Shown: positions 12,455-48,002 of the stretch, in pieces | Layout of the letters: each line of letters opens with the position of its first letter | Position numbering within the stretch: the stretch's first letter is position 1 | Source: an uncultured Bacilli bacterium | GTDB lineage: Bacteria; Bacillota_I; Bacilli_A; RF39; UBA660 | NCBI GenBank assembly: GCA_947626425.1 | Contig: CANQRX010000002.1 | Location: 1-50,322, forward strand | Length of the DNA stretch: 50,322 bases | Direction: 5' to 3' | The notes under the pieces: model-generated | Databases searched by the model: none | What the model saw: only the letters and a program-made list of their open reading frames with translations | Told to the model about the DNA's origin: nothing | Translations under genes and position numbers: made by a program

Positions 12455-12490
12455 GATAATAATAGAGGAAAAATAGTAAGGGATGAGTAA

Positions 12491-13267: not shown

Positions 13268-13296
13268 TTGAAAAGATAAGAAAAATAGTTTATACT
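13268..13296 (+). promoter_or_regulatory. Sigma-A-type promoter (TTGAAA-N17-TATACT) of paralog 2
   Basis: Read directly. The conserved block continues to the RBS (..gataatagag..aaatagtaagggatg). Confidence 0.6.
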
Positions 13297-13333
13297 GATG
13301 ATAATAGAGAGAAAATAGTAAGGGATGGGTTTC

Positions 13334-13951: not shown

Positions 13952-14026
13952 ATTTTTAAATCTTATTTCTTTTAATAAAAAAGACATTAAAACATTTTTT
14001 GCTTTTGTTCGTTTTTAAAATGTTCA

Positions 14027-14055
14027 TTGAAAAGACAAGAAAAATAGTTTATACT
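14027..14055 (+). promoter_or_regulatory. Sigma-A-type promoter (TTGAAA-N17-TATACT) of paralog 3
   Basis: Read directly. Confidence 0.6.
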
Positions 14056-14090
14056 GATGATAATAGAGAAAAATAGTAAGGGATGAGGTC

Positions 14091-14768
14091 ATGAAAACAA
14101 AATATAAAATTTTATTAGGAATAATTTCTCTCGCGTTATTAGCTAGTTTATATATAGCTCAGTCTTATGCTTTATGGACTTTCACGGCCCCTCAAACTAC
14201 TACAAACAGTGTCAGTTCTGGTTGCTTTGATATAGAATACAGTGAAACAGCCAGTTCAACTTTGAATTTAACTCAGTCTTATCCTATAGATGACGCTCAA
14301 GCCTTAAGTAAAGAAACCCCATATACTTTTACAATTAAAAATAATTGTTCTATTAGTACTGAATATACTGTGACTTTAAATACATTAACTTCAAATACAT
14401 TAGATGATGCCAAAATTAAATATGCAATTGTGTCTGGAAGTAGCACTACTACAACTGGTAAAAAGTTATCTGAAGCCACGGCAAATGCTGATACTACAAA
14501 TTTTAATTTAGGTAGTACTTTAAAAAAATCTTATAAATTGGCTACAGGTGTATTAACGCAAAGTGGCTCTGTAACATTTAAGTTGTATTTATGGATCGAT
14601 GCTAGTGCCGGAAATGAAGTAATGAGTCAAAAATTTAATGCTGCTGTTTATGTTAACAATGTTCCAACTAATAAATCAGCAGCAAGTCCGACTATAAGTT
14701 CACCTAGTGTTGATGAAGGACCATCCTTTGAAGATGAAGTTCCTACTGATGAAAATGCTATTGAATAA
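14091..14768 (+). CDS. Secreted/anchored protein, paralog 3 of 3 (QSYALW signal end) with acidic C-terminal tail
   Basis: Same conserved blocks as paralogs 1 and 2, plus an extra SPSVDEGPSFEDEVPTDENAIE tail. Confidence 0.75.
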   Translation: MKTKYKILLGIISLALLASLYIAQSYALWTFTAPQTTTNSVSSGCFDIEYSETASSTLNLTQSYPIDDAQALSKETPYTFTIKNNCSISTEYTVTLNTLTSNTLDDAKIKYAIVSGSSTTTTGKKLSEATANADTTNFNLGSTLKKSYKLATGVLTQSGSVTFKLYLWIDASAGNEVMSQKFNAAVYVNNVPTNKSAASPTISSPSVDEGPSFEDEVPTDENAIE

Positions 14769-21221: not shown

Positions 21222-21250
21222 TTGAAAAAAGAAAGTTATTAACTTATAAT
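21222..21250 (+). promoter_or_regulatory. Sigma-A-type promoter TTGAAA-N17-TATAAT
   Basis: Read directly. Nearly identical to 46466-46494. Confidence 0.6.
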
Positions 21251-21280: not shown

Positions 21281-22661
21281 ATGAAAATAGAAAATTATAA
21301 GTTAAAAACAAGTAAAAAAGCAAAAATATTGATTGGAAGTATGGTAGGAATAATGGCTCTAGGGGGGGGGGTATCTACTAAATAAAAGTTTAGGAAAATA
21401 CCAAGTCGAACAAAGTTTTCCCATAATGAATGGGAAAATTCAAGCAAACAGTGGTGATGTTTCAATCATTGCTATTAAAGTTGATGGAGCTGTAGTAGAT
21501 GAAATTCCAGCTAAAGGTTCAGGAAAATATTTTGAAAGTGCGGAATGTTCAAATGGAGCTACGGGATCATGGGATCGAACGAATTGGCAATTTTTATTAA
21601 ATACAACCAAAAAAACCAAATGTACATTAAATTTTACAACAACAAAAAGTACAACTGGTGAACAAAGTGGTGCAAGTAAAATGGAAGATTTATTATCTCA
21701 AGAAGAAGATAAAGGATCAGGAATAACTATTGTCAGTGATGATAATAACATTAGATATATTGGTCAAAATCCTAGTAACTATATTTATTTTAATTGTAAA
21801 GATAGTACAACTCAAAACGCCGAAAATTGTGAAACATGGCGAATAATAGGATTAATGGATGGAATAAAAACCAAAGCCGGAAAAACGGAAAGATTGTTAA
21901 AAATCATAAGAGAAAAATTACCTGTTTCTTTAAGTTGGGACTCATCTGCTTCTAGTGTAAATCAAGGCTATGGAGTAAATGAATGGAGTCAAGCAGATTT
22001 AATGACTGTCTTAAATGGCGATTATTTTAAAGGCCAAAAAGGAACTGATAAATGTTATAGTAGTTCTGGCGTATCAACAACAGACTGTCCAGATTGGATC
22101 CAGTATGGTTTAAAAAAATCAGCCCAAGATATGATCGAAGAAGTGGTTTGGAATACGGGAACGGCCGCAGTAACAGAAAACACTTGGGAAAAAGGAAATA
22201 TGCCAGTAGTTCAATATATATGGGAACGAAGTGATTTTACAGGAAAGCAATGTAATGGTGGAAGTTATTGTAACGACGATGTTCAAAGACAAACCACATG
22301 GGAAGGCAAAGTAGGTTTGATGTATCCATCGGACTATGGTTATGCCACCGATGGTGGGAAAGACCAAGTGAAAAGAATGCAATGTTTATATACACCATTA
22401 TATGATTGGAATGATAACAGTAATTGTTATAGTAATGATTGGCTATATGATAGTCAAAATTATCAATGGACAATGACTCCTGCGCCGTATTCTTCGTATG
22501 CTAGCGCTGTGTTCATTGTCCACGCAATCGGGCGTGTCTACTACCGCAATGCCTACAATGCTAACGCGGCTCGCCCCGTCGTTTATTTAAAGTCTTCGGT
22601 AAAAATTACTGGGGGGACAGGCTCTGATTCTGATCCATTTCAATTAAAATTAGAAGAATAA
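21281..22661 (+). CDS. Phase-variable surface protein with C-terminal lectin-like domain; currently frameshifted (OFF) at a G10 tract
   Basis: ATG 21281 encodes MKIENYKLKTSKKAKILIGSMVGIMALGGG, then stops at 21383-21385. With G9, the frame continues YLLNKSLGKYQVEQSFPIMNGKIQ.. into ORF 21426-22661. The C-terminal domain (WRIIGL, YPSDYGYAT, RPVVYLKS) is shared with 39851-41695 and 46537-47938. Confidence 0.7.
21362..21371 (+). repeat. Homopolymeric G10 tract inside signal-anchor codons
   Basis: Counted directly as 10 consecutive G in a roughly 30% GC genome. It encodes the GGG at the end of the TM helix. Confidence 0.9.
22478..22583 (+). other. DGR variable-region-like segment (GC-rich, A-poor) at the 3' end of 21281-22661
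   Basis: About 56% G+C by hand count. AAY/TAY codons are interspersed with A-free codons (..cgc aat gcc tac aat gct aac gcg gct cgc ccc gtc gtt). Confidence 0.45.
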
Positions 22662-32070: not shown

Positions 32071-35000
32071 ATGAAAAAGAAGTTAACAATATTTTTGTTA
32101 AGTTTAAGTTTATTTTTGGGTGTTTGTTTAAAAAATACCCAAGCTGCCGAGGTCTATGATCGGGTTAAAAGTGGATACAAAATATCTGGAACATTTACCA
32201 ATACAGGTATTAGTTATTTTCTCGAAGTAGGTTATAAATATGGTGCTCCTAGTACCGGTAGTTATAATGCTTATAAAAATGGCATTGATGGAATATTTAT
32301 ATGTATTTCACCAGATAAAGATGCTGGAACCTATTATAAAGCGGTTACCGAAGTTAACCCAGATTCACCATCTGTTAAAAATAAAAATACGCGTGCTTTT
32401 TATGTTGCTGTAATTAAGGCATATCAAATTATGGTTGACAGTGGGGAAATTACAACTAAAAAAAGTAATGGTCGCTATTCATATACTGACCGTCAAAAAT
32501 TCTTATTAATTGTTCGTTGGTTAGCAAGTAAATATGGATTATTAGATACTAGCCACCCAAGTAGTTCAACAACTCCGGCTGGTAACTATAAAAAATATGT
32601 TTATTCTGATAGAAGCAAATATTGGAATACGTCCAATTCAACTATTAAAAGAGCTGAAGCTGTAACTAAAGCTGCGATAAAAGTTGGAGATAAAATACTA
32701 AAAGGTTCAACTTACCAAAAACTTATTGATAATGGTGATGTTTGGGGCGCTAGATGGGAAAGTACTGCTCCAACTGTCGAAACCAATGCAAAGAAACCAA
32801 ATTTAGTAACTATAAAGTTTGATGTCAAAGCTAAAAACAGTATTCAAAAAATAAATTACAAAGATTTTAAAGTAGAATGTAATTATGGTTATAAGTGTAA
32901 AGATGTAACAATTAAGACTAAAAAGGAAACTACGAAAAAAGGTAAAGAAAAACAATACATAAGTGTAAGTATTGTTGTCGATACAACTAATGGTAAAAAA
33001 CATAAAGCTCAAAATGCTGGGCAACCATATGGAGTTGTTGTTAAAACTAATTTTTATGATTACCATGATTCATCTCATTTATTCTTATTTAATCCAACAG
33101 TTAGTACAAAACAAAAGATGTTACTAATTAGAGATTATAACCAATCAATGCAAATTGTTACTAAGTTTGTTCCAGAATGGGAAGATATTTGTTCTTGCCA
33201 AAAAGATAGCAACGGCAATTACACTGGAAAATATGAGTTGAAAACAATTGTTAATGGTGTTGTAAAAACCGAAGAATTTGGTTTTAACGATAAAAAAGCT
33301 AAAAAATATGATTGTCCTGATTCTTCAAAATGTGTTAGTGAACCTAATCCATCATGTCAAACACCAGATGAAAGTGATGATGGAAATTATCATTGTAAAG
33401 ATGGTGAAGTTTGTGACGAAGAAAAATACAAAGAAGACTGTGATACAGGTAAGAAACCATCATGTCAAACACCAGATGAAAGCGATGACGGAAAATATCA
33501 CTGCAAAGATGGCGAAGTTTGTGACGAAGAAAAATACAAAGAAGACTGTGATACAGGTAAGAAACCATCATGTCAAACACCAGATGAAAGCGATGACGGA
33601 AAATATCACTGCAAAGATGGCGAAGTTTGTGACGAAGAAAAATACAAAGAAGACTGTGATACAGGTAAGAAACCATCATGTCAAATACCAAGTGAAAGTG
33701 ATGATGGAAATTATCATTGTAAAGATGGTGAAGTTTGTGACAAAGATGAATATGAAGATGACTGTTTATGCCCTGAATTAAAGGATAAATGTGAAGAAAA
33801 TCCTGATGATCCTGCTTGCGGTGAATACAAGGAAAAATGTCCAAATTGTTCAGCAACGGTTACAGTTCCAAACAATTGTAATGATTTTGATGCTGAATCA
33901 ACAGTAGACGGTGTTATTAGCGATATTAATGAAACAGCAAGTAGTTGTAATCCAACAGCTAACTTAGTTAAAACCTGTGTAATTGATAAAAAGGATCAAG
34001 CTGGTTCAAGTTTTGAAGCAACCAATGAAATAAAAAATAACCCTTATTGTAAAGTATGGTGTAAAGAAAAATATGAATTCTCATTACCAACAGCAAAATA
34101 TACTCAAAGTGGTGGTTATTTCCAATTAACAATGAAAATAGCTGCTAAAAGAGATTGTTATGTAAGTGCAGCAGATGACCCAGATAATCCAATTGATAAG
34201 ACAAAATTCTTAAGTGATTTAAGTACTGCTGAAACTGCGGTTAAAAATGCTTATAACGAATATAGTAAATTAAACAATGATGCTAATTTATCTGCTTTAA
34301 ATTCTGCTAAAGAAAAAGTGGAAAGTATTATTAGTGATTTTAATAGTTGTTCAAATGGTTGGAGTAATAATTTCGTTTATAACCCAGAAATTGAATATGA
34401 TTATTACAATGACTATTTAACTAATAGTAAAGGAACATTTGAAAAAATTGAAGGAACCGATACAATGACTAGTGAAGATACTTATTGCTCTGGAGATACT
34501 GATGAAAGTTACAATTGTAAATCAGGTGCATCAAACACTATGCAAACTGAAACTCAAAGCTATGAAAATTGTGATGCTCAAGGATGTAGTGTTAAAACTG
34601 CTCAAATAAGTACAGCTAAATGGATTCAAAAAACTAAAATAGTTGCCAATGCTCAATATCAACCAAAAGAAAAATTCTCAACTTATACAAGTTATGGTAT
34701 AATAAAAATAGATGAACCTAGATGTAATGGTAAAGATTGCTTATATACAAGACTTCCAGATAGTTCATTACCTGTTCAATTAACAACTGGTAAAGGAGTA
34801 TTCCCATTCACATTTACATTTAAAAATATTGGTCAATCAAATACTGATAATAATTTAGGTCGTCTAATTGGTTCTGATAACAGTATTGTAAAAGCCTTTA
34901 ATGAATTACCTGATGAATACCGTTGTTCAAAAGACAATGCAACTGATGCATATGGTGGATATGTTTGTCATTACATTAACAACTGTGATGGATGTGACTT

Positions 35001-35589
35001 TGAATGTGTTGGTGACGATTGTAAGTTTGAAGATGAAGAAGAAAATTGCGAAGGTCCAACTTGTCCATTAACATGTGTAAACTGTGTATTTGATGGTCAA
35101 GAAGCAACTTATACCTTTAGAGCTGTGTCCCTTGCTAATTTATTCCCAAATGAATGTGATGAAAATTCTGATAGTAGTGAATGTCGTACAACCGGCTATA
35201 ACTGGGACGTTGGTGAAAAAGCTAGTTTAACTAAGAAAGCAATCCAAGAAGAAGGTAATAATATCTATATTGAACCAGAATATTCATATACAATGAATTC
35301 CTCACAACTAAGTGCTATTAGAGAATATAATCAAAAAGTTGGTTCATATTCTAATACCACAACTGGAGCATTCTTTAACAACGAACCAGCATTGAAATGC
35401 AATGTTGTTGAAATAAATGGAATTCAATATGAGGTTGAATGTTTATCTACATTCTTATCAAACGGAAATGGTAAATACTTTACCGAAAATAAACGAAATA
35501 CTGAATTTGAACTATGGTCAAATACAGAATATTGCTTAAGCGGTAGCTGTTTAGATCGTAAAAAAGGCGTAGGACCGTCTTGGAAGTAG
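32071..35589 (+). CDS. Giant secreted Cys-rich protein 2 (1172 aa), paralog of 27402-31745
   Basis: GGGGGA RBS and signal peptide (..CLKNTQA/AEV). Shares the N-terminal domain, one C-x-C...C-P module and the entire Cys-rich C-terminal region (..YCKVWCKEKYEFSLPTAKYTQSGGYF.., ends GVGPSWK) with protein 1. Contains four 36-aa tandem repeats. Confidence 0.8.
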   Translation: MKKKLTIFLLSLSLFLGVCLKNTQAAEVYDRVKSGYKISGTFTNTGISYFLEVGYKYGAPSTGSYNAYKNGIDGIFICISPDKDAGTYYKAVTEVNPDSPSVKNKNTRAFYVAVIKAYQIMVDSGEITTKKSNGRYSYTDRQKFLLIVRWLASKYGLLDTSHPSSSTTPAGNYKKYVYSDRSKYWNTSNSTIKRAEAVTKAAIKVGDKILKGSTYQKLIDNGDVWGARWESTAPTVETNAKKPNLVTIKFDVKAKNSIQKINYKDFKVECNYGYKCKDVTIKTKKETTKKGKEKQYISVSIVVDTTNGKKHKAQNAGQPYGVVVKTNFYDYHDSSHLFLFNPTVSTKQKMLLIRDYNQSMQIVTKFVPEWEDICSCQKDSNGNYTGKYELKTIVNGVVKTEEFGFNDKKAKKYDCPDSSKCVSEPNPSCQTPDESDDGNYHCKDGEVCDEEKYKEDCDTGKKPSCQTPDESDDGKYHCKDGEVCDEEKYKEDCDTGKKPSCQTPDESDDGKYHCKDGEVCDEEKYKEDCDTGKKPSCQIPSESDDGNYHCKDGEVCDKDEYEDDCLCPELKDKCEENPDDPACGEYKEKCPNCSATVTVPNNCNDFDAESTVDGVISDINETASSCNPTANLVKTCVIDKKDQAGSSFEATNEIKNNPYCKVWCKEKYEFSLPTAKYTQSGGYFQLTMKIAAKRDCYVSAADDPDNPIDKTKFLSDLSTAETAVKNAYNEYSKLNNDANLSALNSAKEKVESIISDFNSCSNGWSNNFVYNPEIEYDYYNDYLTNSKGTFEKIEGTDTMTSEDTYCSGDTDESYNCKSGASNTMQTETQSYENCDAQGCSVKTAQISTAKWIQKTKIVANAQYQPKEKFSTYTSYGIIKIDEPRCNGKDCLYTRLPDSSLPVQLTTGKGVFPFTFTFKNIGQSNTDNNLGRLIGSDNSIVKAFNELPDEYRCSKDNATDAYGGYVCHYINNCDGCDFECVGDDCKFEDEEENCEGPTCPLTCVNCVFDGQEATYTFRAVSLANLFPNECDENSDSSECRTTGYNWDVGEKASLTKKAIQEEGNNIYIEPEYSYTMNSSQLSAIREYNQKVGSYSNTTTGAFFNNEPALKCNVVEINGIQYEVECLSTFLSNGNGKYFTENKRNTEFELWSNTEYCLSGSCLDRKKGVGPSWK
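33349..33780 (+). repeat. In-frame tandem repeat, 4 x 108 bp (36 aa: PSCQTPDESDDG-N/K-YHCKDGEVCDEEKYKEDCDTGKK)
   Basis: Units start at 33349, 33457, 33565 and 33673. Units 2 and 3 are identical. Units 1 and 4 share a different set of synonymous variants, and unit 4 diverges at its 3' end. Confidence 0.9.
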
Positions 35590-35598
35590 GAGGATATT

Positions 35599-36042
35599 AT
35601 GAAAGAATCTTATTGGGGTTATTGGATAATTGTACTAGGTGTATTTATCATCGTCATAATGATGTTAATATCTAATGTGACAACGACTAATACTCAAGAC
35701 TATTATTTAATAAAAGAAGTATCAGAAGCTTCGATGGTAGATGCAATAGATTATGCGTATTATCGTCAAAGTGGTGAATTAAGAATTAATCGTGAAAAAT
35801 TTGTAGAAAGCTTTTTAAGACGCTTTGCTGAAAATGTTTCACTTAGTACATATACTGTAAATTTTTACGATATATATGAAGCACCACCTAAAGCAAGTGT
35901 TGAAGTTATAACCAAAAGCAATACTTATAATATAAATTCTGATGCCCAAAGTTTTGATATTGTTAATAGAATAGATGCAATATTAGAACTAGATGGTACT
36001 GCAGAATCAGGAACGTTTGATAACTTACAATCAAATCCTTAA
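35599..36042 (+). CDS. Small N-terminally membrane-anchored protein (possible pseudopilin-like or assembly factor)
   Basis: AGGAGG RBS 10 nt after the giant gene stop. MKESYWGYWIIVLGVFIIVIMMLIS hydrophobic N-terminus, then a soluble domain of about 115 aa. It sits directly upstream of the Tad-like core. Confidence 0.55.
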   Translation: MKESYWGYWIIVLGVFIIVIMMLISNVTTTNTQDYYLIKEVSEASMVDAIDYAYYRQSGELRINREKFVESFLRRFAENVSLSTYTVNFYDIYEAPPKASVEVITKSNTYNINSDAQSFDIVNRIDAILELDGTAESGTFDNLQSNP

Positions 36043-36080
36043 AAAATTGCTTTAAAAAATATTAGTTAGGAGGAATAAAA

Positions 36081-36914
36081 ATGGGAAATTTATTATCAAA
36101 ACTTAAAAGGTTTTTAGAAAATAAAAATACAGTAACAATTTTATGTGTAATCGCGGGAATTGCAGTTTTGTATATTGGTTATAATTGGCGGGTTAATTCA
36201 GCTATTAGTCCGACATCTATTCCTTATGCAAAAACTGCTTTACCTTCACGTCATGTTATAACATCAGATGATATTGGTTATATGGAAGTTTCTAGTGCGG
36301 TCGTTAATCGTAGTTCTAATATTATTAGAAATTCCAATTTAATTATTGGTAAAGAGGTAATGTATGGTACTACCATTCCTCAAAATAGTTTTTTCTATGA
36401 TAGTGCAATTACCGATTCTAATTTACAACCAGATGATGTTATGGCTGATATTCCAAACGGCTATACATTGTTTACTTTATCAGTAGACTTACATACTACT
36501 TATGGTAACTCTATTTATCCTGGAAATTATATTGATTTATGGTTTAAGGGTGTAGATGATTACAACAAAATAATGTATACCAACTTAATAAGAAGTATTA
36601 AAGTTTCCGATGTTCGGGATAGTAATGGTCAATCTGTTTTTGAAACATCTATGGAAAAAAGAACACCATCTGAATTATTATTTGCAGTTCCTGATGATAT
36701 GTATTCTTTGCTTAAAAAAGCTCAATACATTGGTGGGGTAGAAATAATACCAGTTCCAAGAAACCGTAATTATACTGCCAATCCTGGAGAAACAGAAGTT
36801 GCTAGTGATTATGTAAAAGAATTTATTTTATCAAAAACCGCAATTATTCCAGATGAAAATATAAGTACAAACACAAATGATAATAACGATGAAAACAATA
36901 ATGTAGAAGAATAA
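36081..36914 (+). CDS. CpaB/RcpC-like Flp pilus assembly protein (SAF-domain protein)
   Basis: AGGAGG RBS and an N-terminal TM helix. This is followed by a SAF-like segment (IPYAKTALPSRHVITSDDIGYMEV...IIGKEVMYGTTIPQNSFF). It lies immediately upstream of a CpaF/TadA-type ATPase. Confidence 0.5.
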   Translation: MGNLLSKLKRFLENKNTVTILCVIAGIAVLYIGYNWRVNSAISPTSIPYAKTALPSRHVITSDDIGYMEVSSAVVNRSSNIIRNSNLIIGKEVMYGTTIPQNSFFYDSAITDSNLQPDDVMADIPNGYTLFTLSVDLHTTYGNSIYPGNYIDLWFKGVDDYNKIMYTNLIRSIKVSDVRDSNGQSVFETSMEKRTPSELLFAVPDDMYSLLKKAQYIGGVEIIPVPRNRNYTANPGETEVASDYVKEFILSKTAIIPDENISTNTNDNNDENNNVEE

Positions 36915-36933
36915 CAAGAAAGGGGTGCCGGCC

Positions 36934-38061
36934 ATGAATGATGCTATATTTTCGCAATTAGACTTTGGGCCAATCGAAGAATTTTTAAGAAATGAAGATG
37001 TAACAGATATTTCTTATAGTAATAATGGCTGTGTTTGGTTAAAATCACTTTCTCAAGGTTGCTATAAAGTTGAACGACCTGAAATAAATAATGCACTTAT
37101 GGAAAAATTAGCATTTCAGTGTGCAAATGTTATGGGTAAAACATTTAACATGGCCCATCCTTTCTTAGATGCAGAAAGTGCCGAATTACGTTTAAATTTT
37201 GTTCATGATTCCATTGCTACAAATGGAATTGCTTGCGTTATCCGTAAAACACCAGCCAAAATCCGATTAAATAAAACTAAATTATTAGATGAAAAATACG
37301 TTTCCGAAAGTGTTCATGATTTTTTGATTAAATGTGTAGAAGGTCATGCCAATATAATTGTCAGTGGAGAAACTGGTTCCGGAAAAACCGAATTAGTTAA
37401 ATACTTAGCTTCACATACCAAAGAAAACGAAAAAGTTATTACCATTGAAGATACATTGGAGTTACATTTAGACCGAATTTTTCCTCATCGGGATATTGTG
37501 GCAATGAAAACTAATAATATTGCGAGTTATTCAGATGTTTTAGTAACATGTATGCGTCAAAATCCCATTTGGATATTACTTTCCGAAGTTCGTAGTGCTG
37601 AAGCGGTTATGGCCGTCCGTAACTCGATTTCTTCAGGGCACCACATTTTATCAACAATTCACTCCGATAAAGCAAGTTTAATTCCGATGCGTATGTATTC
37701 TTTAGTTGAATCAAACATTGATGTCGAACAGTTTGTCGCGACAATTCACCGATACGTCCAAATAGGAGTCTATGTAAAAGGTTATTTAAGTAAAGAACTG
37801 GGTAGATTTCAAAGAGAAATATTGGAAGTTTGTGAATTTTATGTTGATGATAATAATAAGCCAAAAACAAATATTATATTTAAAAAAACTTTAACAGGTG
37901 AGATTACTATGAATAATCCTACCGAACATTTAAGAGATTATTTAGGTATTTCAGGGGTTCTTTTACCAGATGACATTTTTGCATCAGAAAAAGATAATTC
38001 TGATTCTAGTCAAATGGCTAATAATACTTCATCTGATATTGAGCAGATAGAAACTTTATAA
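36934..38061 (+). CDS. CpaF/TadA-type secretion ATPase (VirB11/GspE superfamily)
   Basis: Walker A VSGETGSGKTE, ITIEDTLEL, Walker B-like IWILLSEVRSAEA, and His-box-like HHILSTIHS. Size of about 375 aa is typical of TadA/CpaF. Confidence 0.8.
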   Translation: MNDAIFSQLDFGPIEEFLRNEDVTDISYSNNGCVWLKSLSQGCYKVERPEINNALMEKLAFQCANVMGKTFNMAHPFLDAESAELRLNFVHDSIATNGIACVIRKTPAKIRLNKTKLLDEKYVSESVHDFLIKCVEGHANIIVSGETGSGKTELVKYLASHTKENEKVITIEDTLELHLDRIFPHRDIVAMKTNNIASYSDVLVTCMRQNPIWILLSEVRSAEAVMAVRNSISSGHHILSTIHSDKASLIPMRMYSLVESNIDVEQFVATIHRYVQIGVYVKGYLSKELGRFQREILEVCEFYVDDNNKPKTNIIFKKTLTGEITMNNPTEHLRDYLGISGVLLPDDIFASEKDNSDSSQMANNTSSDIEQIETL

Positions 38062-38077
38062 GAAGGAGAGAGGACCA

Positions 38078-38974
38078 ATGATTGAGCTTATAATTTTAAT
38101 AGCCTTAGCAGTTTTTGCTTTATCATACCGATTTAATAATGGAGAAAATATTTACAAATTTTTTGTTACCAAAATTTCAATGGCTTATGATCGATATGCT
38201 CCATATAGTTTTAAAACGGTTCGGGAAAAAACCAAAGAATTAGGAAAAGAGTACACTGCTAAAGATTATTTAACCCAAGTAGCGCTCTTTGTTGCCGTTG
38301 CTGGAGGAATATCTTATCTATATTTTTACAATATTATTATTTCTGCTATTTATGCAGGTGTAGCGGTTTTGTTTATCCCGTTTTTAGCTTATTTAAGGTG
38401 TCAAAAAGCTTATTCAGAATTTTTATTCGAGCAAACCCAGGTTTATACAACCAATGTTATAATGGAATTTAATACCACTCAAAGTTTTGTAAAATCTTTA
38501 GAAGGCGTTCGGGATTCTGGAATCTTAGAAAATCCTCTTTTGGATGATGTTAAAACAATGATTGATATGTCTTACCAAAATGGAACAATTGATGAATCAA
38601 TAGAATTCTTTAATAAAAAGTATCCTTACTATATGGTAAAAAATATGCACCAATTATTTTTACAAATAACAAAAGAAGGTGCAAAAGACTCTGGTGAAGC
38701 CTTAGAAAATATGTCCATGGATATCGATGCCTTAGTTGAAGGTGTTTATCGAGACCAAATCGACAGAGCAAACTTTCACAAACGATTTATAACTTTTGGA
38801 TTAGCCTTATTTCTATTAGTAATGGCCATGCAATTTCTACTCGGAACAGAATCTTATTTAAAATTATTAGATATGTGGTATGTACAAGTAGTCCTTCACT
38901 TAATAATCTGGATTAACTGTTTCTTTCTATACCGCGGCGAACGTTTCTATTATGAAGATGTGGGGGTAGAATAA
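38078..38974 (+). CDS. TadB-like platform protein (T2SS-F-type membrane protein)
   Basis: 298 aa. An N-terminal TM helix, a helical cytoplasmic domain, then C-terminal TM helices. Position is directly after the ATPase. The call rests on topology and context. Confidence 0.5.
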   Translation: MIELIILIALAVFALSYRFNNGENIYKFFVTKISMAYDRYAPYSFKTVREKTKELGKEYTAKDYLTQVALFVAVAGGISYLYFYNIIISAIYAGVAVLFIPFLAYLRCQKAYSEFLFEQTQVYTTNVIMEFNTTQSFVKSLEGVRDSGILENPLLDDVKTMIDMSYQNGTIDESIEFFNKKYPYYMVKNMHQLFLQITKEGAKDSGEALENMSMDIDALVEGVYRDQIDRANFHKRFITFGLALFLLVMAMQFLLGTESYLKLLDMWYVQVVLHLIIWINCFFLYRGERFYYEDVGVE

Positions 38975-39762
38975 TGTACTGGGAAATAATTACCTTAGCA
39001 ATTATAATATTGTTTGTTTTAAATTATACCGGAAGGATTTCTGCTTCTCGTTTCGTTAGCGATAATGAAGTAATCTTTCAAAAATTAAAAGAAAAAGATT
39101 GGGATTTTTATGTAAAGATTAGATATGGAGATACGGTAAACCCAGACTTCTTATTTACCAAAAGAGTTCAAAACGGGTTAATAATAATTGTCATCATGCT
39201 TTGCTTCTTTATTTCTAATTTATCTTATGTAACCATTTTGTTTAGTTTAATTGCCGGCTATTTAGTATTTAAAATGCAATATAATAATTTAAAGAATTAT
39301 TATAAAAGACATTTACATGAAATAGACGCCATGTTACCACATTATTTAAAAAGTTTGGAAATTTTAATTCAACATTACACCGTTCCAGTAGCTTTAGGAA
39401 AATCAATTGAAGATGCCCCAGCTATATTTAAAGACGGTTTACAAGAATTAATTAGTCAAATCAACAGTGGGGATAGTTCAATTAATCCTTATATGCAATT
39501 CGCCAAAGTTTATCCAGTTCGTGATTCAATGCGAATGATGCGTTTATTATATCGTTTATCATTAGGACGACAAGAACATAAACAAGAACAATTAATTACT
39601 TTCTCAAGAACCATTTCTAATTTACAACAAAAAGCAAGAGAAATAAAATACAAAGAACGTCTTGACAAAATGGAAAAGAAAACCATGCAAATGCTAGTTG
39701 TAACCGGTGTTGGGGTAATGATATTACTAGTTTTAGCGGTTTTAATGATGATGAATATGTAA
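38974..39762 (+). CDS. TadC-like platform protein (T2SS-F-type membrane protein)
   Basis: 262 aa. Start overlaps the previous stop (TAATG). Same TM - cytoplasmic domain - TM topology as the preceding gene. Confidence 0.5.
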   Translation: MYWEIITLAIIILFVLNYTGRISASRFVSDNEVIFQKLKEKDWDFYVKIRYGDTVNPDFLFTKRVQNGLIIIVIMLCFFISNLSYVTILFSLIAGYLVFKMQYNNLKNYYKRHLHEIDAMLPHYLKSLEILIQHYTVPVALGKSIEDAPAIFKDGLQELISQINSGDSSINPYMQFAKVYPVRDSMRMMRLLYRLSLGRQEHKQEQLITFSRTISNLQQKAREIKYKERLDKMEKKTMQMLVVTGVGVMILLVLAVLMMMNM

Positions 39763-39794: not shown

Positions 39795-39826
39795 TTGACA
39801 AACGGGGGGGGGGTATATGATAAAAT
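39795..39826 (+). promoter_or_regulatory. Putative promoter whose -35/-10 spacer contains a G10 tract
   Basis: TTGACA (39795-39800), then AAC plus G10. Candidate -10 elements are TATGAT (39816-39821, spacer 15) or extended TG-A-TAAAAT (39818-39826, spacer 20). Confidence 0.5.
39804..39813 (+). repeat. Homopolymeric G10 tract (intergenic)
   Basis: Counted directly. The in-frame stop at 39827-39829 shows it is not part of the 39851 ORF. Confidence 0.9.
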
Positions 39827-39850: not shown

Positions 39851-41695
39851 ATGGAAAAGAAAACAAATACTTTTAATTATTTTATTGTTGTATTAATTAT
39901 TTTAGTTATTGCTTTTTTAGGAATAACGTATGCTTATTGGAATGTAACAATTAATCAAGAAAATAAAAATGTAGTAAAATCAGTTTGTTTAAAAGTAAGT
40001 ATGGCTAAAGATGAAAATGAAATAAGTCTACCTAAAGCTATGCCCATCAGTGACGAAGAAGGTGTAGCTTTAGCACCATATACCTTTAGCATTAAAAATA
40101 CTTGTAATGATAATGCAAGTTACCAAATAAATTTAGAGTCTTTATCCAAAATAAATGGAACAGAAGAAATACCTTTTAATGATAGATTAGCACCCAAATA
40201 TGTTCGCTTTAAATTAAATAAAACCGAAAAACCAGATGAAGGAACAATGTTATTATTAAGTAATACGGATGAAGTAACCCCAATTTTAGATAATACCTAT
40301 AGTTCCCATAAATTAATGACCGGATATTTAAGTCCAAGTGAAACCAAAGATTTTGAATTAAGATTATGGATAGATGAAGATGCTGATGAAGGAGCGATGA
40401 ATAAAACATTTGCCAGTAAAGTAACCATAACCAATGCTTATTTAGAGGAAGATAAAATACCACCAACAGCCACTTTAGATTTAGCGGTTTGTGATAATCT
40501 AATTACAGCTACCGGAAGTGGTCAAGCAAATAAAGACAAAACAATTTCTAAATATGAATATAAATTAGATGATGATGATTGGTATGAAACAACAAGTACT
40601 GAACCAAAAACATTTACAGTTGAAGATTATGGCTTACATAAAATAAGTTTAAGAGTAACGGATAATACCAATAATGTAAGTGGTGAAGTAATAAAAGAAG
40701 TTGAAATAAAAAAACCAGAAACTGTAAATATTAAAGGTAAAGATATTCCAGTAGCAACCTGTGGAGATGGATTATATCGAGTGGAACATAAAGATGGCCC
40801 TGATAACTGGAAAGAAACAGAATATCGTTTTGCCGGAGTAAACTATACTAATGATAGCACTTCATATGTCCATAATTATGTAAGCTTTAATGAAGAAATT
40901 TGGCGAATTATAGGATTAGTAAATGTTAAAACAGAAGATGGAAAATATGACCAACGATTAAAAATTGTCCGAACTGATGGAGTAGGTAACCAAAAGAATT
41001 TTGGCAGTTATCAATGGAATAATACAGCTAATAGTGACTGGACGAAATCATCATTAAAAAATATGTTAAACGGAATTTACTATACTAGTGAAAATGGAGA
41101 TTGTTATACAACAAGTAGTACAGCAACCCAATGTGATTTTAGTCAAGAAAGTACTACTTTACCAAATGGTTTAAATGAAACAGCCCGAGGAATGGTCGAT
41201 GATGGAGTAATCTGGAATTTAGGAGGAACAGCAGCATATCAAACTACAACAGTAACCCAATTTTATAATTATGAACGAGGAACGACAGTGTATAATGATA
41301 GACCAAAGGAATGGACAAAAACCAATGATGCAAGTGAACATAAAGGAGTAGGCTTAATTTATCCAAGTGATTATGGGTATGCCACGAATGGTGGAACCTC
41401 GGGAAGAGATTATTGTTTTAAAAAAGCACTATACAGTTGGGCCGGAAGTGGTTATAAAGAAGAATGTGCCAATAAAGATTGGTTAAAGCCAAGTAGTAGC
41501 TATTTATGGACGATTACGCCGAATTCGGGCAGTTCCCACGCTGCGTTCAGTGTCCACTCGTCGGGGTTTGTCATCGGCAACTACAGCGTCGCGAACTCCT
41601 ACGTCGTCTGGCCCGTCGTGTATCTGAAATCGAATATTCAGATTTCCGGCGGTGATGGGACTTTTGAAAATCCCTTTACTCTTGAATTAGATTAA
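39851..41695 (+). CDS. Fusion surface protein: TasA-like-signal N-terminal domain + Ig-like linker + lectin-like C-terminal domain with DGR-VR-like end
   Basis: N-terminus ..IILVIAFLGITYAYWNV. Residues 1-195 align with the 12.5-14.8 kb paralogs (PISD, PYTFSIKNTC, FELRLWIDEDA). Residues about 200-614 align with 46537-47938, with long identical DNA stretches. Confidence 0.8.
   Translation: MEKKTNTFNYFIVVLIILVIAFLGITYAYWNVTINQENKNVVKSVCLKVSMAKDENEISLPKAMPISDEEGVALAPYTFSIKNTCNDNASYQINLESLSKINGTEEIPFNDRLAPKYVRFKLNKTEKPDEGTMLLLSNTDEVTPILDNTYSSHKLMTGYLSPSETKDFELRLWIDEDADEGAMNKTFASKVTITNAYLEEDKIPPTATLDLAVCDNLITATGSGQANKDKTISKYEYKLDDDDWYETTSTEPKTFTVEDYGLHKISLRVTDNTNNVSGEVIKEVEIKKPETVNIKGKDIPVATCGDGLYRVEHKDGPDNWKETEYRFAGVNYTNDSTSYVHNYVSFNEEIWRIIGLVNVKTEDGKYDQRLKIVRTDGVGNQKNFGSYQWNNTANSDWTKSSLKNMLNGIYYTSENGDCYTTSSTATQCDFSQESTTLPNGLNETARGMVDDGVIWNLGGTAAYQTTTVTQFYNYERGTTVYNDRPKEWTKTNDASEHKGVGLIYPSDYGYATNGGTSGRDYCFKKALYSWAGSGYKEECANKDWLKPSSSYLWTITPNSGSSHAAFSVHSSGFVIGNYSVANSYVVWPVVYLKSNIQISGGDGTFENPFTLELD
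41519..41620 (+). other. DGR variable-region-like segment
   Basis: About 62% G+C and 14% A by hand count. See the codon comparison with 47759-47860 in the findings. Confidence 0.55.
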
Positions 41696-41766: not shown

Positions 41767-42519
41767 ATGTTAAAAGAAGTAAAAGCATTTTTTCTTACTT
41801 TAATTGTCGGAATAGTCGCTTTAACTCTAAATGTTAATGCTGCATCAACTGCTACAGTAAATTCTCAAGCTGATTTAAAAGAAGCCTTAGATGATGAAAG
41901 TATTACCACAATTATTTTAGGTAGCGATATTGATACTACGGAAAAAATTAATATTGTTCGACCTGTTACAATTGATGGTCAAAATCATACTATTCGTTAT
42001 GTAGGAACTTTTGGTGATGAAGGAAGTAGAGACAATACTGTTTGGTCTGGAATTTATGTTTTACAATTTTATAAAACAACTGGAACCTTAAAAGACATTA
42101 AATTAACAGGCGGGAATGCTGGCCTTTTACTTAATGGTTCAGAAGTAACTTTTGAAGGAACAATTGATGTTTCTGGTAATGGTTTTGGCGGTATTGAATT
42201 AGGCCAAGGTGCTAATGTAACCGAAACTCCTCATTTAAAATTAGAAGGCGATGCCGAAATTGTTAACACAACCGAAGCCGAAGATGCTCCAACATTATGG
42301 GTTCCTGATGATACTAAAACCGCAATTTTAGAAAGTAATGGAATGCAAGAAACAATATCAGCTGGCGAAGAATTAACTATTATAGAAGCCCTAAGTTATT
42401 TTAATGTCCCAACTGAAAATCCTCAAACAGCCGATTTTAACAAATTATCAATTGTTTTAGGATTTATGAGCTTATTTATCTTTGCTTTAACTATGTCAAA
42501 GATTATGTTAAGAAAATAA
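41767..42519 (+). CDS. Secreted protein with class-B-sortase-type sorting signal (NPQTA + TM + basic tail)
   Basis: GGAGA RBS and signal peptide ..LTLNVNA/AST. The C-terminus NPQTADFNKLSIVLGFMSLFIFALTMSKIMLRK has the motif at 42418-42432. Confidence 0.7.
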   Translation: MLKEVKAFFLTLIVGIVALTLNVNAASTATVNSQADLKEALDDESITTIILGSDIDTTEKINIVRPVTIDGQNHTIRYVGTFGDEGSRDNTVWSGIYVLQFYKTTGTLKDIKLTGGNAGLLLNGSEVTFEGTIDVSGNGFGGIELGQGANVTETPHLKLEGDAEIVNTTEAEDAPTLWVPDDTKTAILESNGMQETISAGEELTIIEALSYFNVPTENPQTADFNKLSIVLGFMSLFIFALTMSKIMLRK

Positions 42520-43190: not shown

Positions 43191-44009
43191 TTAGCTTTTG
43201 ATTTCTTTTTTTATTAGTTTCGCATGTAAAACAACGCGTTCATTACCAATTCCATCCTTGCAAGTTGATAAGGTTAAAACTTTATCATTGGTATTTAAAC
43301 TCGTTTGAAAATCATAAATGCTTCGATTTTTAATAGTTGTTAAAAATTGTTGATAATCATTCTCAGTTAAAAAATGAGTTGTTAAATAATACGTTTCACT
43401 AGGAATTACATAAACCGAAAAAACTTGAAAAATCATATTCGTTTGGGGAGTAGATATTTTAACTATATGGTTTTGTAAGTCGCTTAACCAATTTTCCTCT
43501 AAGGTATATTTTAAACTACCAAACATGCTTTCATCATTGCGGCGGTGCCCATAAATAATCGAGTTATTATTTAGATAATCCAAATTATTTCGATAATCAG
43601 AAAAAATCCAACCGGCTTTATTTTCCGTTTTATCAAATGAATGGGTTAAATAAAAATCATTATTTTTGGTTTTAACAATAGGGTAATTAATAAGAGTATT
43701 AGGTATATTTATCCAACCTACCGTGTCGTTATTCTGACTTTTTAACTCTTCAAAATTAATATTAAGATAGGGAATATCAACATAATTATAATAACTATCC
43801 GAAATATCATTCGGTGGATTAACTAAATCAGCAGTATAATCTTCTTTTAAAAATTCATCTAAATAATTTATTTGAATTTCCTTAATCAATTCTTTATTTT
43901 TTCTATTATCTAATTCCCACATGGCATACTGATAAAAAAAATAAATTGTTAAACTAAAAGTTAAAATCATGACAATATATAACTTATTTTTCTTTTTTCT
44001 TGGTTCCAT
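43191..44009 (-). CDS. srtB: Class B sortase
   Basis: N-terminal TM anchor, GWINIPNT..INYPIV, YGHRR, catalytic TLSTC motif, and a conserved downstream Arg (ERVVLHAKL). Confidence 0.85.
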   Translation of the reverse strand: MEPRKKKNKLYIVMILTFSLTIYFFYQYAMWELDNRKNKELIKEIQINYLDEFLKEDYTADLVNPPNDISDSYYNYVDIPYLNINFEELKSQNNDTVGWINIPNTLINYPIVKTKNNDFYLTHSFDKTENKAGWIFSDYRNNLDYLNNNSIIYGHRRNDESMFGSLKYTLEENWLSDLQNHIVKISTPQTNMIFQVFSVYVIPSETYYLTTHFLTENDYQQFLTTIKNRSIYDFQTSLNTNDKVLTLSTCKDGIGNERVVLHAKLIKKEIKS

Positions 44010-44063: not shown

Positions 44064-44384
44064 TTAGTTTAAAAAAGAAATTTTAGTTATTTGTTCAAAA
44101 TAAAGGGAAGTATGATCATCAAAATATATTTGTTTGTTTTGAAAATTAAAGTGATCAATAATTCCTAATTTTCGATAAAACTGATTTTTCCAAAAATAAA
44201 TTATTTGGATTTTTTCTTTCGTGTGATAAGCTTTTTGAATATTTTGTTCAAGATTTTCTTTGTCATCTTCACTTAAAATCGATAATTTTTGTTGATTTCT
44301 TTTTTCTTTTAATTCCTGTAATACTTCGCTTGCAGGTACTACGGCATTAAAGGGTTGCCACTTAACTTCGCCACGATTACTCAT
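44064..44384 (-). CDS. YolD-like protein
   Basis: AAAGGTGG RBS. MSNRGEVKWQPFNAV.. and its size and position downstream of a UmuC-like polymerase match the Bacillus yolD/yqzH arrangement. Confidence 0.7.
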   Translation of the reverse strand: MSNRGEVKWQPFNAVVPASEVLQELKEKRNQQKLSILSEDDKENLEQNIQKAYHTKEKIQIIYFWKNQFYRKLGIIDHFNFQNKQIYFDDHTSLYFEQITKISFLN

Positions 44385-45639
44385 AATGACCACCTTTCTT
44401 TTTATTACGTTCTTTAATCGTTGAATTGCTTAAAAGACTTGTTGCTTTTAAAACACTATTTTTGCCAAACTGTTGATGAATTTGATCTAAAACCAAATCT
44501 AAATCATTTTGTTTTTCTTGCTTTTCTAAAGGATTAAATAAATCTAATTGAATACCTTGATACTTCGATAATTTTCCTAAAGCAATACTAACTTTTCTTA
44601 TTGGTGTATTTTCTTCATAATAACGATCAAAAATAATTTTGCAAACTTGAAATAAACTTTCCGTCGAGCGAGTAGGTAAATCTAATTTTGTGGAATGATA
44701 AAAACCTCCTCCGATATTTAAGGAATAACTAATTCCTAAATAAATTAAATTAGTTTCTAAATTTTTACTTCGAAGCCTTTTCGTTAACACCTCTAACATT
44801 TCTTCAATTATTAAAAATATTTCTTCATTGTAATAATCCTTAAAAAGGACTTGACTATGACTAATTGATTTTTCTTTTGGAGCATGGTTAAAATCGCTAA
44901 TTAAAGAGTTATCTATCCCATTCGCATGTTCCCATAATTCCTGACCAATAACACCAAACTTATTTTTTAAAAGCTCAGGGTTATAGTTTGCTAAATCCCC
45001 AACCGTTATTATTCCTAAATTATTAAGCCGTTTTTCCATTCGTGATCCAATTCCCCACATTTTGGAAAGGGGAGTGATTGGCCAAAGTTTAGAAGGCACA
45101 TCATTATAAGTCCATTTAGCTATGCCATTTTTATATTTTTTCGCTTCGACATCCATAGCTATTTTAGCTAAAAGTAAATTAGGTCCAATTCCACAAGTCG
45201 CAGTTAAACCTGTTTTTGCTTCAATCGTTTGTAAAATTTTTAATGCTAGCTGTTCATCCGTTAATTGGTAATAATCTAAATAAGTTGTAACATCTAAAAA
45301 ACATTCATCAATCGAATAAATATGTAAGTCATTTTCGCTAACAAAGTCTAAATAAATGTTAATAACTTCTTTACTTTTTTGGGTATATAAACCCATTCGT
45401 GGCGGAACAATTTGATATTTTATTTCTTTGGGAATATTATAAAGCCTAGTCCGAGAAGGAATATTTTGAGCTTTTAAAAAAGGCGTTATCGCTAAAGTAA
45501 TGGCACCCTTACCTTGTTTATCATTCGCAACGACTAAGGCAGTTGTAAAAGGATTTATTCCTCGTTCGACACATTCACAAGAAGCAAAAAAACTTTTTAA
45601 ATCAATACATAAAATATGGCGATTACTTTTTTGGTCCAT
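44377..45639 (-). CDS. Y-family DNA polymerase (UmuC/DinB-like, UvrX/YqjW type)
   Basis: GGAGGTG RBS before MDQKSNRHILCIDLKSFFASCE (catalytic D-x-K-x-F-F-A), SIDECFLDVT, and an HhH region. Confidence 0.85.
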   Translation of the reverse strand: MDQKSNRHILCIDLKSFFASCECVERGINPFTTALVVANDKQGKGAITLAITPFLKAQNIPSRTRLYNIPKEIKYQIVPPRMGLYTQKSKEVINIYLDFVSENDLHIYSIDECFLDVTTYLDYYQLTDEQLALKILQTIEAKTGLTATCGIGPNLLLAKIAMDVEAKKYKNGIAKWTYNDVPSKLWPITPLSKMWGIGSRMEKRLNNLGIITVGDLANYNPELLKNKFGVIGQELWEHANGIDNSLISDFNHAPKEKSISHSQVLFKDYYNEEIFLIIEEMLEVLTKRLRSKNLETNLIYLGISYSLNIGGGFYHSTKLDLPTRSTESLFQVCKIIFDRYYEENTPIRKVSIALGKLSKYQGIQLDLFNPLEKQEKQNDLDLVLDQIHQQFGKNSVLKATSLLSNSTIKERNKKKGGHYE

Positions 45640-45744
45640 TAAAAACACCTCCCAAACTTTTGTTCAATAACATTATAACAAAATTAGAAGGAAATACAAT
45701 TGACAAAAATTAACAATTTTGGGAAGATAAAACAGGTGAAGAAA

Positions 45745-46465: not shown

Positions 46466-46494
46466 TTGAAAAAAAGAAGTTATTAACTTATAAT
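46466..46494 (+). promoter_or_regulatory. Sigma-A-type promoter TTGAAA-N17-TATAAT
   Basis: Read directly. Part of the 5' cassette shared with 21220-21430. Confidence 0.6.
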
Positions 46495-46536
46495 TTTAAG
46501 TAGAAAAACTAGGTAAAAAATGAAAGGAAAAAGAAA

Positions 46537-47938
46537 ATGAAAATTGATAATTATAAGTTAAAAAACAGAAAAAAAGCAAAAATTTTAATAGGAAGTATGG
46601 CCGGAATAATAGCCCTAGGGGGGGGGGTATATATTAAGTAGAAGTTATGGAAAATACCAAGTAGAACAAAGCTTTCCCATAATGGAAGGCCAAATAAAAA
46701 TTAGAAAAATAACAGTAGATTTAAGTTTAGAACCTTGTGATGATACAATTTTAGCTACAACAGAAGTAACCCCAGCAGATAATATTAAAAAGTATGAATA
46801 TCAAATTGACAGTGAAAGTTGGAAAGAAGGTTCTGCTACACAGAATTTTATTGTACCGTCGAGAGGGCATCATACAGTAAAAGTTAAAGTAACTGCGGGA
46901 TCAAAAACAGCTGAAACAAGTAAAGAGATAGATATGCCAGCCTCAGTAACCGTAGATATCTCTGGAAAAGCAATTCCACTTGTATCATGTGATCCAAATG
47001 GATTATATAAAGTCGAACATAACGAAGCGGATGTTGATGAAGGATTTAGCCATGAAGAATATCGTTATGCGGGAGTAAATTATACTGATGCAGATACACC
47101 ATATGTTCATAATTATGTAAAATTTAATGAAGAAAAATGGCGAATCATCGGATTAGTGAATGTAAAAACTGGAGAAGGCGCCTATGACCAACGATTAAAA
47201 ATCGTGCGAACTAGTGGAGTAGGTAACCAAAATAATTTTGGAAGTTATTATTGGAATAATAAAAGTAAAAATGATTGGACAAGTTCATCATTAAAAAATA
47301 TGTTAAACGGAATTTACTATAATAGTGGAAGTGGAAGTTGTTATACAACAAGTATTACAGCAACCCAATGTGATTTTAATTCTGAAAGTGGAACTTTACC
47401 AAAAGGATTAAGTCAAGAAGCTCGAGAAATGGTAGATGGAGAAGTAACATGGAATTTAGGAGGAACAAATGCTAATACTACTTCTACTTCTACAGTAACC
47501 CAATTTTATAATTATGAGCGAGGAACGACAGTGTATAGTAATCGACCAACGGAATGGACAAAAACCAATGATGCAAGTGAACATAAAGGAGTAGGCTTAA
47601 TTTATCCGAGTGATTATGGGTATGCCACGAATGGTGGAACCTCGGGAAGAGATTATTGCTTTTCAGAAGCATTATTTAAATGGGATACAGGAGATTATAA
47701 AACAAACTGTTCAAGTAATGATTGGTTAAAATCAAGTGGTTTAGTGTGGACGATTACGCCGGATTCGGGCAAATCCGGCAATGCGTTCTATGTCAACTCG
47801 TCGGGGTCTGTCGACGGCCGCTTCAGCGTCATTTACTCCCGAGTCGTCTGGCCCGTCGTATATCTGAAATCGAATGTTAAAATTATTGATGGAGATGGCA
47901 CTTTTCAAAATCCGTACATCTTATCTGTTCAAAATTAA
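46537..47938 (+). CDS. Phase-variable surface protein with Ig-like and lectin-like domains; currently frameshifted (OFF) at a G10 tract
   Basis: ATG 46537 encodes MKIDNYKLKNRKKAKILIGSMAGIIALGGG, then stops at 46639-46641. With G9, the frame continues YILSRSYGKYQVEQSFPIMEGQIK.. into ORF 46682-47938. Confidence 0.7.
46618..46627 (+). repeat. Homopolymeric G10 tract inside signal-anchor codons
   Basis: Counted directly. Confidence 0.9.
47759..47860 (+). other. DGR variable-region-like segment
   Basis: Same frame and length as 41519-41620. All 20 invariant codons are shared, and differences are confined to 14 codons. Confidence 0.55.
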
Positions 47939-47945
47939 AAGTTAG

Positions 47946-48002
47946 TCGAAGAGGTGTACTATCTAGTGTGTAAATATTATACACTAGATAGTACACCTTC
48001 GA
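47946..48002. other. Long perfect-stem hairpin/palindrome 8 nt after the stop codon
   Basis: GGTGTACTATCTAGTGT (47953-47969) pairs perfectly with ACACTAGATAGTACACC (47981-47997). Extra pairs on both sides extend the stem. No T-run follows. Confidence 0.7.

Follow-up and report, generated by a model that had tools for sequence, protein, structure and literature searches.

A ten-guanine tract in the signal-anchor codons of a lectin-like adhesin gene of an uncultured Bacilli bacterium: a candidate homopolymer contingency switch

The first 50,322 nucleotides of contig CANQRX010000002.1 (NCBI GenBank assembly GCA_947626425.1, forward strand; hereafter "the window") from an uncultured Bacilli bacterium (GTDB lineage Bacillota_I; Bacilli_A; RF39; UBA660) exhibit a run of ten uninterrupted G residues (G10) at positions 46618-46627, flanked by an A on one side and a T on the other. 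The run lies in the 5' part of a lectin-like adhesin gene, designated here as gene C. We classify this feature as a probable homopolymer contingency switch, located in the codons for the signal anchor of an adhesin gene, a known kind of device found here in an unusual lineage and an unusual gene family. Slipped-strand phase variation, with the gene ON at G9 and OFF at G10, is the best reading of the data and the one that we favor with moderate confidence. The features discussed below are listed in Table 1.

As assembled, the leader open reading frame (ORF) starting at ATG 46537 encodes a 34-aa product, MKIDNYKLKNRKKAKILIGSMAGIIALGGGVYIK, and terminates at the TAG codon 46639-46641. The downstream ORF (46682 to 47938, 418 aa; hereafter "the body") is in the +1 frame with respect to ATG 46537, and at G10 this frame is closed upstream by a TAG codon (46616-46618) sharing the first G of the tract. 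When the tract is resized in silico from G8 to G12, a single continuous ORF (...ALGGGYILSRSYGKYQVEQSFPIMEGQIK...) is obtained only at G9 and G12, and reads ...GIIALGGGYILSRSYGKYQVEQSFPIMEGQIK... across the tract. The G8, G10 and G11 versions all terminate within 3-4 codons of the tract. The run thus occupies a 5' position where a change of one unit is expected to alter expression, as in simple-sequence-repeat (SSR) loci, only G9 and G12 joining the leader to the 418-codon body. These results bear out the original prediction, made from the sequence alone, that translation from ATG 46537 is OFF at G10 with a stop at 46639-46641, and that G9 turns it ON into the ORF ending at 47938; G12 turns out to join the two ORFs as well. 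The promoter upstream of the leader (TTGAAA-17-TATAAT) is apparently constitutive, so that control would be translational.

The joined G9 product is 466 aa long and begins with a basic head followed by the hydrophobic 19-mer ILIGSMAGIIALGGGYILS. The tract corresponds to codons 28-30 of the leader ORF, and the three glycines that it encodes lie within this putative membrane-anchor helix. The best hydrophobic 19-mer of the joined protein has a mean Kyte-Doolittle value of 1.82, against 0.38 for a product starting at the internal ATG 46682. A membrane anchor is thus predicted in the joined protein only. Initiation at ATG 46682 was considered and rejected as a source of the body, this codon having no Shine-Dalgarno-like element upstream (aaagctttcccata) and its product having no anchor. 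In the mechanism that we propose, the G10 run would be a hypermutable simple-sequence contingency tract whose length changes by one G through replication slippage. At G10 the gene would be OFF, yielding the 34-aa stub and leaving the body out of frame and devoid of its membrane anchor. At G9 it would be ON, yielding the 466-aa protein with an N-terminal signal anchor followed by PKD/Ig-like and C-type-lectin-like domains. We infer that such length changes are frequent and reversible and that expression follows them. A further ATG, at 46520, does not share the frame of ATG 46537 in the window but does so in another assembly, where a 40-aa stub is called (P0233; MKGKRKMKIDNY...); the A run between both ATGs therefore differs by one base.

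The G10 tracts are not a product of chance. The GC content of the window is about 28%, and runs of at least eight G residues occur in it at three places only (21362-21371, 39804-39813 and 46618-46627). Dinucleotide shuffles predict 0.15 matches to G8, against nine overlapping matches observed, and none of 100 shuffles reached nine. In a census of 117 kb, covering the window and related low-GC loci, the lengths of G runs are bimodal: G5 was found 18 times, G6 once, G7 to G9 never, and G10 eight times. A T10 run is also present in these loci. An uninterrupted homopolymer far longer than composition predicts, as expected for an SSR locus, is thus observed.

The two other tracts of the window are also located at the 5' ends of paralogous genes. 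The tract at 21362 lies within the coding region of paralogue A. As the original prediction had it, this arrangement is the same as in gene C: the leaders are 83% identical over 181 nt (comparison D9), with identical frame relations, and the promoter of paralogue A (21222-21250) is of the same TTGAAA-17-TATAAT type. A potential hairpin around the internal ATG of paralogue A (21414-21440; TTTTCCCAT-AATGA-ATGGGAAAA, fold z = -2) has a weaker counterpart in gene C (46671-46690) and a modified form in the allele L006. This structure may block internal initiation, or may simply result from the SFPIM(N/E)G codons. The third tract is intergenic. It is placed between the stop codon of ORF 38974-39762 and the ATG of paralogue B (39851), 37 nt upstream of the latter, and is flanked by TTGACA (39795-39800) and by two -10 candidates, TATGAT (39816-21, spacer 15) and TAAAAT (39821-26, spacer 20). 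A promoter scan at this tract detected none with a 16-18 nt spacer at G10. The proposal that three G10 tracts govern three lectin-like genes thus holds for their location upstream of, or early within, paralogous genes, and has to be amended for the third, which is a promoter-spacer tract and not a coding one.

The same arrangement is found in a related species (L010-L013: GCA_947623995.1 and ENA samples, 23-30x coverage), which exhibits three more G10 tracts, all in the promoter spacers of members of this family (L010 8372-8381, 9952-9961 and 16026-16035, and the same in L011-L013). Here the TTGACA and TATAAT hexamers are perfect, with spacers of 20, 21 and 19 nt, respectively, and the layout is TTGACA-N1-2-G10-N7-10-TATAAT upstream of three paralogues. 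Other paralogues of that genome have no tract (L010 5061, L010 19653 and L146 10001). Perfect G runs are thus found at anchor codons in A and C and in promoter spacers in B and the related species, and a single property, mutability of length, explains both. With a G-run device at each of these family members (in an identical codon position of A and C, and in the promoters of B and the three related-species genes), the members would switch independently. Combinatorial control by the tracts is a reasonable model, not a demonstrated one.

The promoter tracts also invite a reading in which G10 is a length-conserved DNA element, a regulator binding site or structural site present in promoters and in the early transcribed region of A and C, the body being started at the internal ATG 46682 or left untranslated. 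This reading would account for the exact conservation of G10 while the total promoter spacer varies from 19 to 21 nt, for the lack of G7-G9 runs, and for a consensus that is never the "optimal" state. However, the internal ATG has no Shine-Dalgarno element and its product lacks the anchor present in all intact homologues, the 54 nt from the tract to this ATG evolve as coding sequence in the frame of the body, no candidate regulator was identified, and a role as a DNA element gives no reason why two paralogues should have their reading frame broken at one identical codon. We therefore consider this reading improbable.

Homologues of this adhesin family are numerous. In more distant ones the leader is intact, carries GIGGIF or GVGGVF and is free of G runs, which indicates that the G tract is a derived feature. 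LGGGY is read in frame in two close relatives, P0002 (C-type, ...LGGGYILSRSYGKYQ) and P0137 (A-type). Eleven of 13 distinct alleles start at or near the internal methionine, or have a separately called 34-aa leader stub alongside; leader stubs are called in other assemblies as P0122 and P0123 (34 aa) and, from the upstream start, as the P0233 mentioned above. At the nucleotide level, all coding tracts retrieved are G10 (L003, L004, L005, L006, L007, L144 and L145), and the promoter tract of B is G10 in L008 and G9 in another sample (L009). Two further searches extended the survey: a back-translated leader pattern had no match in JGI metagenomes, and a scan of genome contigs returned one distant relative only, in a metagenome-assembled genome (MAG) of an uncultured Erysipelotrichaceae. 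A split gene downstream of L145 was examined as a further SSR locus and rejected, the difference amounting to 3 SNPs at 3x coverage.

Five diverged coding alleles keep the G run uninterrupted despite differing flanks. Variable sites among them are distributed over codon positions 1, 2 and 3 as 6, 4 and 14 in frame 0 before the tract, and as 6, 4 and 9 in frame +1 after it. The post-tract peptide Y(I/L)L(N/S)(K/R)S(L/Y)GKYQV..SFPIM is kept across the coding alleles. This third-position bias on both sides, each in its own frame, points to the joined protein as the unit under selection, in spite of the split genotype of the assembly. Purifying selection on a gene that is OFF in the reference is a further property expected of an SSR locus, and with ORFs intact in all alleles it is what we observe. 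The same data bear on the possibility that these genes do not switch and are frameshift pseudogenes in decay. Such decay would fit with a gene split in most assemblies and with the 11 alleles without a leader, but a lesion recurring at one and the same codon in two paralogues and in no fewer than five diverged alleles is difficult to reconcile with it, as are the downstream ORFs of about 400 codons, all intact, the coding substitution pattern on both sides, the maintenance of a perfect G10 at 28% GC, and the existence of in-frame alleles. We regard decay as very improbable.

Several observations weigh against phase variation. At every locus, the consensus corresponds to the state predicted to be OFF or poor. 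Of the 22 tracts readable in coding and promoter contexts (3x-30x assemblies), 21 are exactly G10, and the sole G9 (L009) belongs to a 2.6x contig that ends 5 nt away. The in-frame, presumably ON, alleles P0002 and P0137 are known as proteins only. The promoter spacers are 19, 20, 21 and 20 nt, so that an optimum would need the loss of 2-3 G. All the DNA apparently derives from one sequencing project (ERZ27249xxx / GCA_9476...), the samples of which may not be independent, and the look-ups, being made by exact protein, are biased to identical strains. The frame arithmetic behind the ON/OFF switching proposed in the original prediction is sound; switching itself is hardly seen. The uniformity of G10 could be due to an OFF state favored in gut populations, to a mutational funnel or a different mutational spectrum, to non-independent samples, or to a fixed-length tract that does not drift. 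In Campylobacter jejuni, insertions prevail in tracts of G8-G9 and deletions in those of G10-G11, funnelling tracts to G9/G10; for cj0031 (ON at G9, OFF at G10), the rates are 10.3 × 10-4 for G9 to G10 and 17.9 × 10-4 for G10 to G9 (PMC3401435). With these rates a neutral tract would be found at G9 more often than at G10, unlike here.

The uniformity might in principle be technical, the true length being G9 or variable and the pipeline reporting G10. The common project origin of the DNA is in line with such an artefact, G runs are difficult for short-read chemistry, and low-coverage contigs, many of them at 3x, often end 5-130 nt from a tract (L002, L005-L009, L144 and L145). These ends could reflect heterogeneity of length among reads, or poor sequencing through G runs. 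But G10 recurs in more than 20 assemblies at 3x-30x coverage, and a systematic +1 error is unusual in an Illumina consensus; the G9 of L009 and the T10 run, delivered by the same pipeline, make a hard homopolymer cap unlikely. We give an artefact very little credence.

The uniform length also keeps programmed slippage alive as a rival. Here G10 would be fixed and recoded, either by RNA polymerase slippage producing G9 transcripts or by a +1 ribosomal slip of tRNA-Gly on GGG GGG GGG G. The expected outcome is a constant fraction of full-length adhesin together with the 34-aa peptide, the genotype staying G10. All five diverged, readable coding alleles are exactly G10 and in the same OFF frame, with diverging flanks that still code across the junction, a pattern that fits recoding at a fixed length, and a search for leaders gave no stubs in the G11 or G8 frame; yet in-frame alleles of G9 type exist (P0002 and P0137). 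The G run resembles a Shine-Dalgarno sequence as well as being slippery, and at a GC content of 28% the codon GGG is expected to be rare. The stimulatory context of programmed slippage (an adjacent stop or rare codon, and a hairpin upstream or 5-9 nt downstream) was not found: neither a stop in the 0 frame nor a hungry-codon context adjoins the run, the stop being 4 codons downstream, the upstream fold is no better than shuffles and thus provides no hairpin, a conserved hairpin occurs only further downstream, about 25-45 nt from the tract, and the leader contains no Rfam element. Moreover, G10 is also present in promoter spacers of paralogues, which are not transcribed and so lie out of reach of recoding. 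The known sites of transcriptional slippage in bacteria are mostly runs of A or T, which also counts against it. We consider recoding unlikely. It is quite unlikely, too, in our view, that the G run is length-fixed at exactly ten throughout, placed in promoter spacers or signal-anchor codons of one adhesin family and read by a programmed mechanism (RNA polymerase or ribosome slippage, or a dedicated G10 factor). Expression of a lectin-like adhesin diversified by a diversity-generating retroelement (DGR) would then be set without any change of genotype.

Proteins A, B and C belong to no Pfam or NCBIfam family, do not match Pfam CLec, DUF1566 or FGE, and have no sequence-profile match in the PDB. 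AlphaFold2 (AF2) models built on alignments of homologues reached pLDDT values of 92.5 and 92.3. In fold searches, residues ~10-100 correspond to a PKD/Ig-like sandwich. The C-terminal 318 residues have their best structural match (E-value = 8.9e-7, 326 columns, query-normalised TM score of 0.42) in the Thomasclavelia ramosa IgA peptidase (PDB: 9qa6), to which no sequence similarity is detectable; next come the C-terminal domain of Legionella Lcl (probability 0.92) and many weak C-type lectins. The N-terminal domain of this IgA peptidase, from an Erysipelotrichaceae gut bacterium, is described as a double-size CTLD (C-type-lectin-like domain) core with irregular insertions, related to Lcl (PMC12237041). 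The match is tentatively assigned to that domain on the basis of its size and of the accompanying lectin-type matches. In the peptidase this domain is N-terminal to the metalloprotease, dispensable for the activity of the enzyme, and not reported to be variable. The models thus support the description of the C-terminal domain as "lectin-like", as originally proposed, at the level of the fold. Some distant homologues have a type IV pilin signal (P0166, MNKKRNGFTLVELL). Directly upstream of the tract and gene of paralogue B is a Tad/Flp-like pilus set (35599-39762: DUF5411, RcpC/CpaB-like, T2SSE ATPase and two membrane proteins). Together, this neighbourhood and the pilin signal suggest that the family is displayed on the surface or on a pilus. 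The product would be a surface- or pilus-associated binding protein, which is the usual class of contingency genes.

Genes A, B and C probably are, or recently were, DGR targets, to judge from their 3' ends. The window contains only three GC-rich islands (at least 48% GC in 120-nt windows), at 22471-22620, 41461-41670 and 47701-47880, each of which is the C-terminal end of one of the genes A, B and C; adenine is about 16% in these islands. Between gene C and paralogue B, 24 of 124 nt differ over 47747-47870, 20 of them at codon positions 1-2, and at 19 of these differences one copy has an A. In 20 close homologues, the scaffold columns are invariant and alternate with others of 2.5-3.2 bits, and the residues in the hypervariable columns are almost all reachable from AAY codons. 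The template repeat (TR) deduced from the comparison of B and C would resemble TGGACGATTACGCCGAATTCGGGCAAATCCAACAATGCGTTCAATGTCAACTCG.... As in DGR targets, the putative variable region (VR) is at the C-terminus of a C-type-lectin-like fold, here the AF2 model with pLDDT 92.3 and its matches to 9qa6, Lcl and weak C-type lectins. The other components of a DGR, a reverse transcriptase (RT) and a template repeat, were found neither in the 50-kb window nor in viral contigs: low-stringency blastn of the three VR-like segments against the window gave VR-to-VR matches only, and no RT domain is present among the window ORFs scanned. The VR/TR 17-mer GTCGTCTGGCCCGTCGT had only chance matches in GC-rich metagenomes, with no extended similarity, in public collections; two longer VR/TR patterns had no match in viral contigs, and a domain profile search of viral contigs found no relatives. 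No TR or RT being found, we infer DGR diversification from the variable-region signature only. The putative DGR diversification of the original prediction is thereby supported only as regards GC-rich, adenine-poor C-terminal segments with DGR-like variability in all three genes. An SSR switch layered over a DGR is plausible, if unproven. A distant homologue (P0050; L014 11084-11305 / 11900-12127) has two tandem copies of the C-terminal end of the lectin-like domain, with a GC-rich VR-like island in the last copy only.

Table 1. Positions in the window of the G10 tracts and associated features
Feature	Position	Strand	Basis
Sigma-A-type promoter TTGAAA-17-TATAAT of the leader + body transcript	46466..46494	+	11/12 consensus positions
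Shine-Dalgarno-like AAGGA, 8 nt 5' of ATG 46537	46524..46528	+	read from sequence
Leader ORF at G10: basic N-terminus, partial hydrophobic helix, early stop	46537..46641	+	ORF list, frame table
+1-frame TAG overlapping first G of tract	46616..46618	+	sequence, frame table
G10 homopolymer, proposed slipped-strand switch	46618..46627	+	sequence, shuffles, frame resizing
Body frame: rest of anchor and linker (YILSRSYGKYQVEQSFPIM), PKD/Ig-like domain, enlarged C-type-lectin-like domain; first ATG 46682	46619..47938	+	ORFs, AF2, fold searches
DGR-type VR-like segment within GC-rich island 47701-47880	47747..47870	+	GC scan, paralogue B comparison, column entropy
22-bp inverted repeat directly 3' of stop codon, probably a terminator hairpin	47952..47998	+	sequence
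G10 in coding region of paralogue A (leader ORF 21281-21385, body ORF 21426-22661, VR-like island 22471-22620)	21362..21371	+	ORFs, frame table, GC scan
Third G10, intergenic, 5' of paralogue B (39851-41695, VR-like 41507-41630)	39804..39813	+	ORFs, promoter hexamers

The window exhibits several other features of potential interest. Downstream of gene B are a gene with a pectate-lyase-like adhesive domain and a sortase gene (41767-42519 and 43191-44009). A Y-family DNA polymerase (IMS domains) and a YolD-like partner are encoded on the minus strand at 44064-45648, about 1 kb upstream of the tract of gene C. Y-family polymerases have a known tendency to -1 frameshifting in runs of G; the placement of this one is probably a coincidence. 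Three tandem paralogues of ~205-225 aa (12397-14768), with conserved promoter regions and no Pfam or NCBIfam family, share a 50-nt motif coding for PYTF(T/S)IKN with gene B (40075-40124) and with a 1172-aa ORF (34803-34852). In-frame tandem repeats are present in two very large ORFs without family match, as 108-nt units (33346-33765) in ORF 32071-35589 and as 21-nt units (30063-30183) in ORF 27402-31745; both are candidates for length-variable surface proteins. Two adjacent duplicated genes (14886-16520 and 16536-18170), encoding AAA-ATPase_like and PD-(D/E)XK_9 domains, are 90-99% identical over the repeat blocks compared.

Several known systems resemble the arrangement. The best-studied low-GC precedent is that of the polyG/C genes of C. 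jejuni, which share with gene C a low-GC genome, isolated G9-G10 runs in the 5' parts of surface or host-interaction genes, and a frame flipped by a slip of one nucleotide. In C. jejuni, however, tract lengths vary between strains and within cultures with G9 as the mode, whereas here nearly all are G10 and OFF, and the host here is an uncultured Erysipelotrichaceae-like Firmicute with a lectin-like adhesin family. Neisseria pilC has poly-G in its signal-peptide coding region, and Mycoplasma hominis vaa and M. fermentans p78 have poly-A near the N-terminus. As in gene C, the homopolymer of these genes is in the secretion-signal or N-terminal part of an adhesin, and a frameshift stops translation before the functional domains. 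The families are unrelated, and switching was shown experimentally for those genes, not for the gene at 46618. Promoter-spacer homopolymer switches are known from N. meningitidis porA and opc, Bordetella fim and Mycoplasma hyorhinis vlp. The tract of paralogue B (39804) and the three L010 tracts resemble them in lying between TTGACA and TATAAT-like hexamers, where their length sets the spacing, but at G10 the spacing is 19-21 nt (or 15), none of which is optimal, and a change of 2-3 nt is needed instead of one; this comparison bears on the sister tract and not on the tract at 46618. Finally, the DGR-diversified C-type-lectin proteins (Bordetella phage Mtd, Treponema TvpA and DUF1566/Lcl-like proteins) likewise have a C-terminal variable segment on a CTLD-like scaffold with alternating invariant and hypervariable positions; they differ from the present case, which has no TR, RT or accessory gene within 50 kb. 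Our literature search turned up no paper in which a DGR target is paired with SSR phase variation; for Erysipelotrichaceae, it yielded no report of poly-G switches.

In most MAGs, these genes are split or shortened by gene callers, which makes the mis-annotation of the family systematic. Phase variation in gut Firmicutes is usually described as promoter inversion. If the tracts switch, homopolymer contingency loci of the Campylobacter/Neisseria style would exist in an uncultured Erysipelotrichaceae-like gut bacterium. They would gate single members of a family of surface or pilus C-type-lectin-like proteins, the binding tips of which carry a signature of retroelement hypermutation. Two layers of diversification would then be stacked, one determining which paralogues are ON and the other what each of them binds, with possible relevance to IgA evasion and mucosal attachment.

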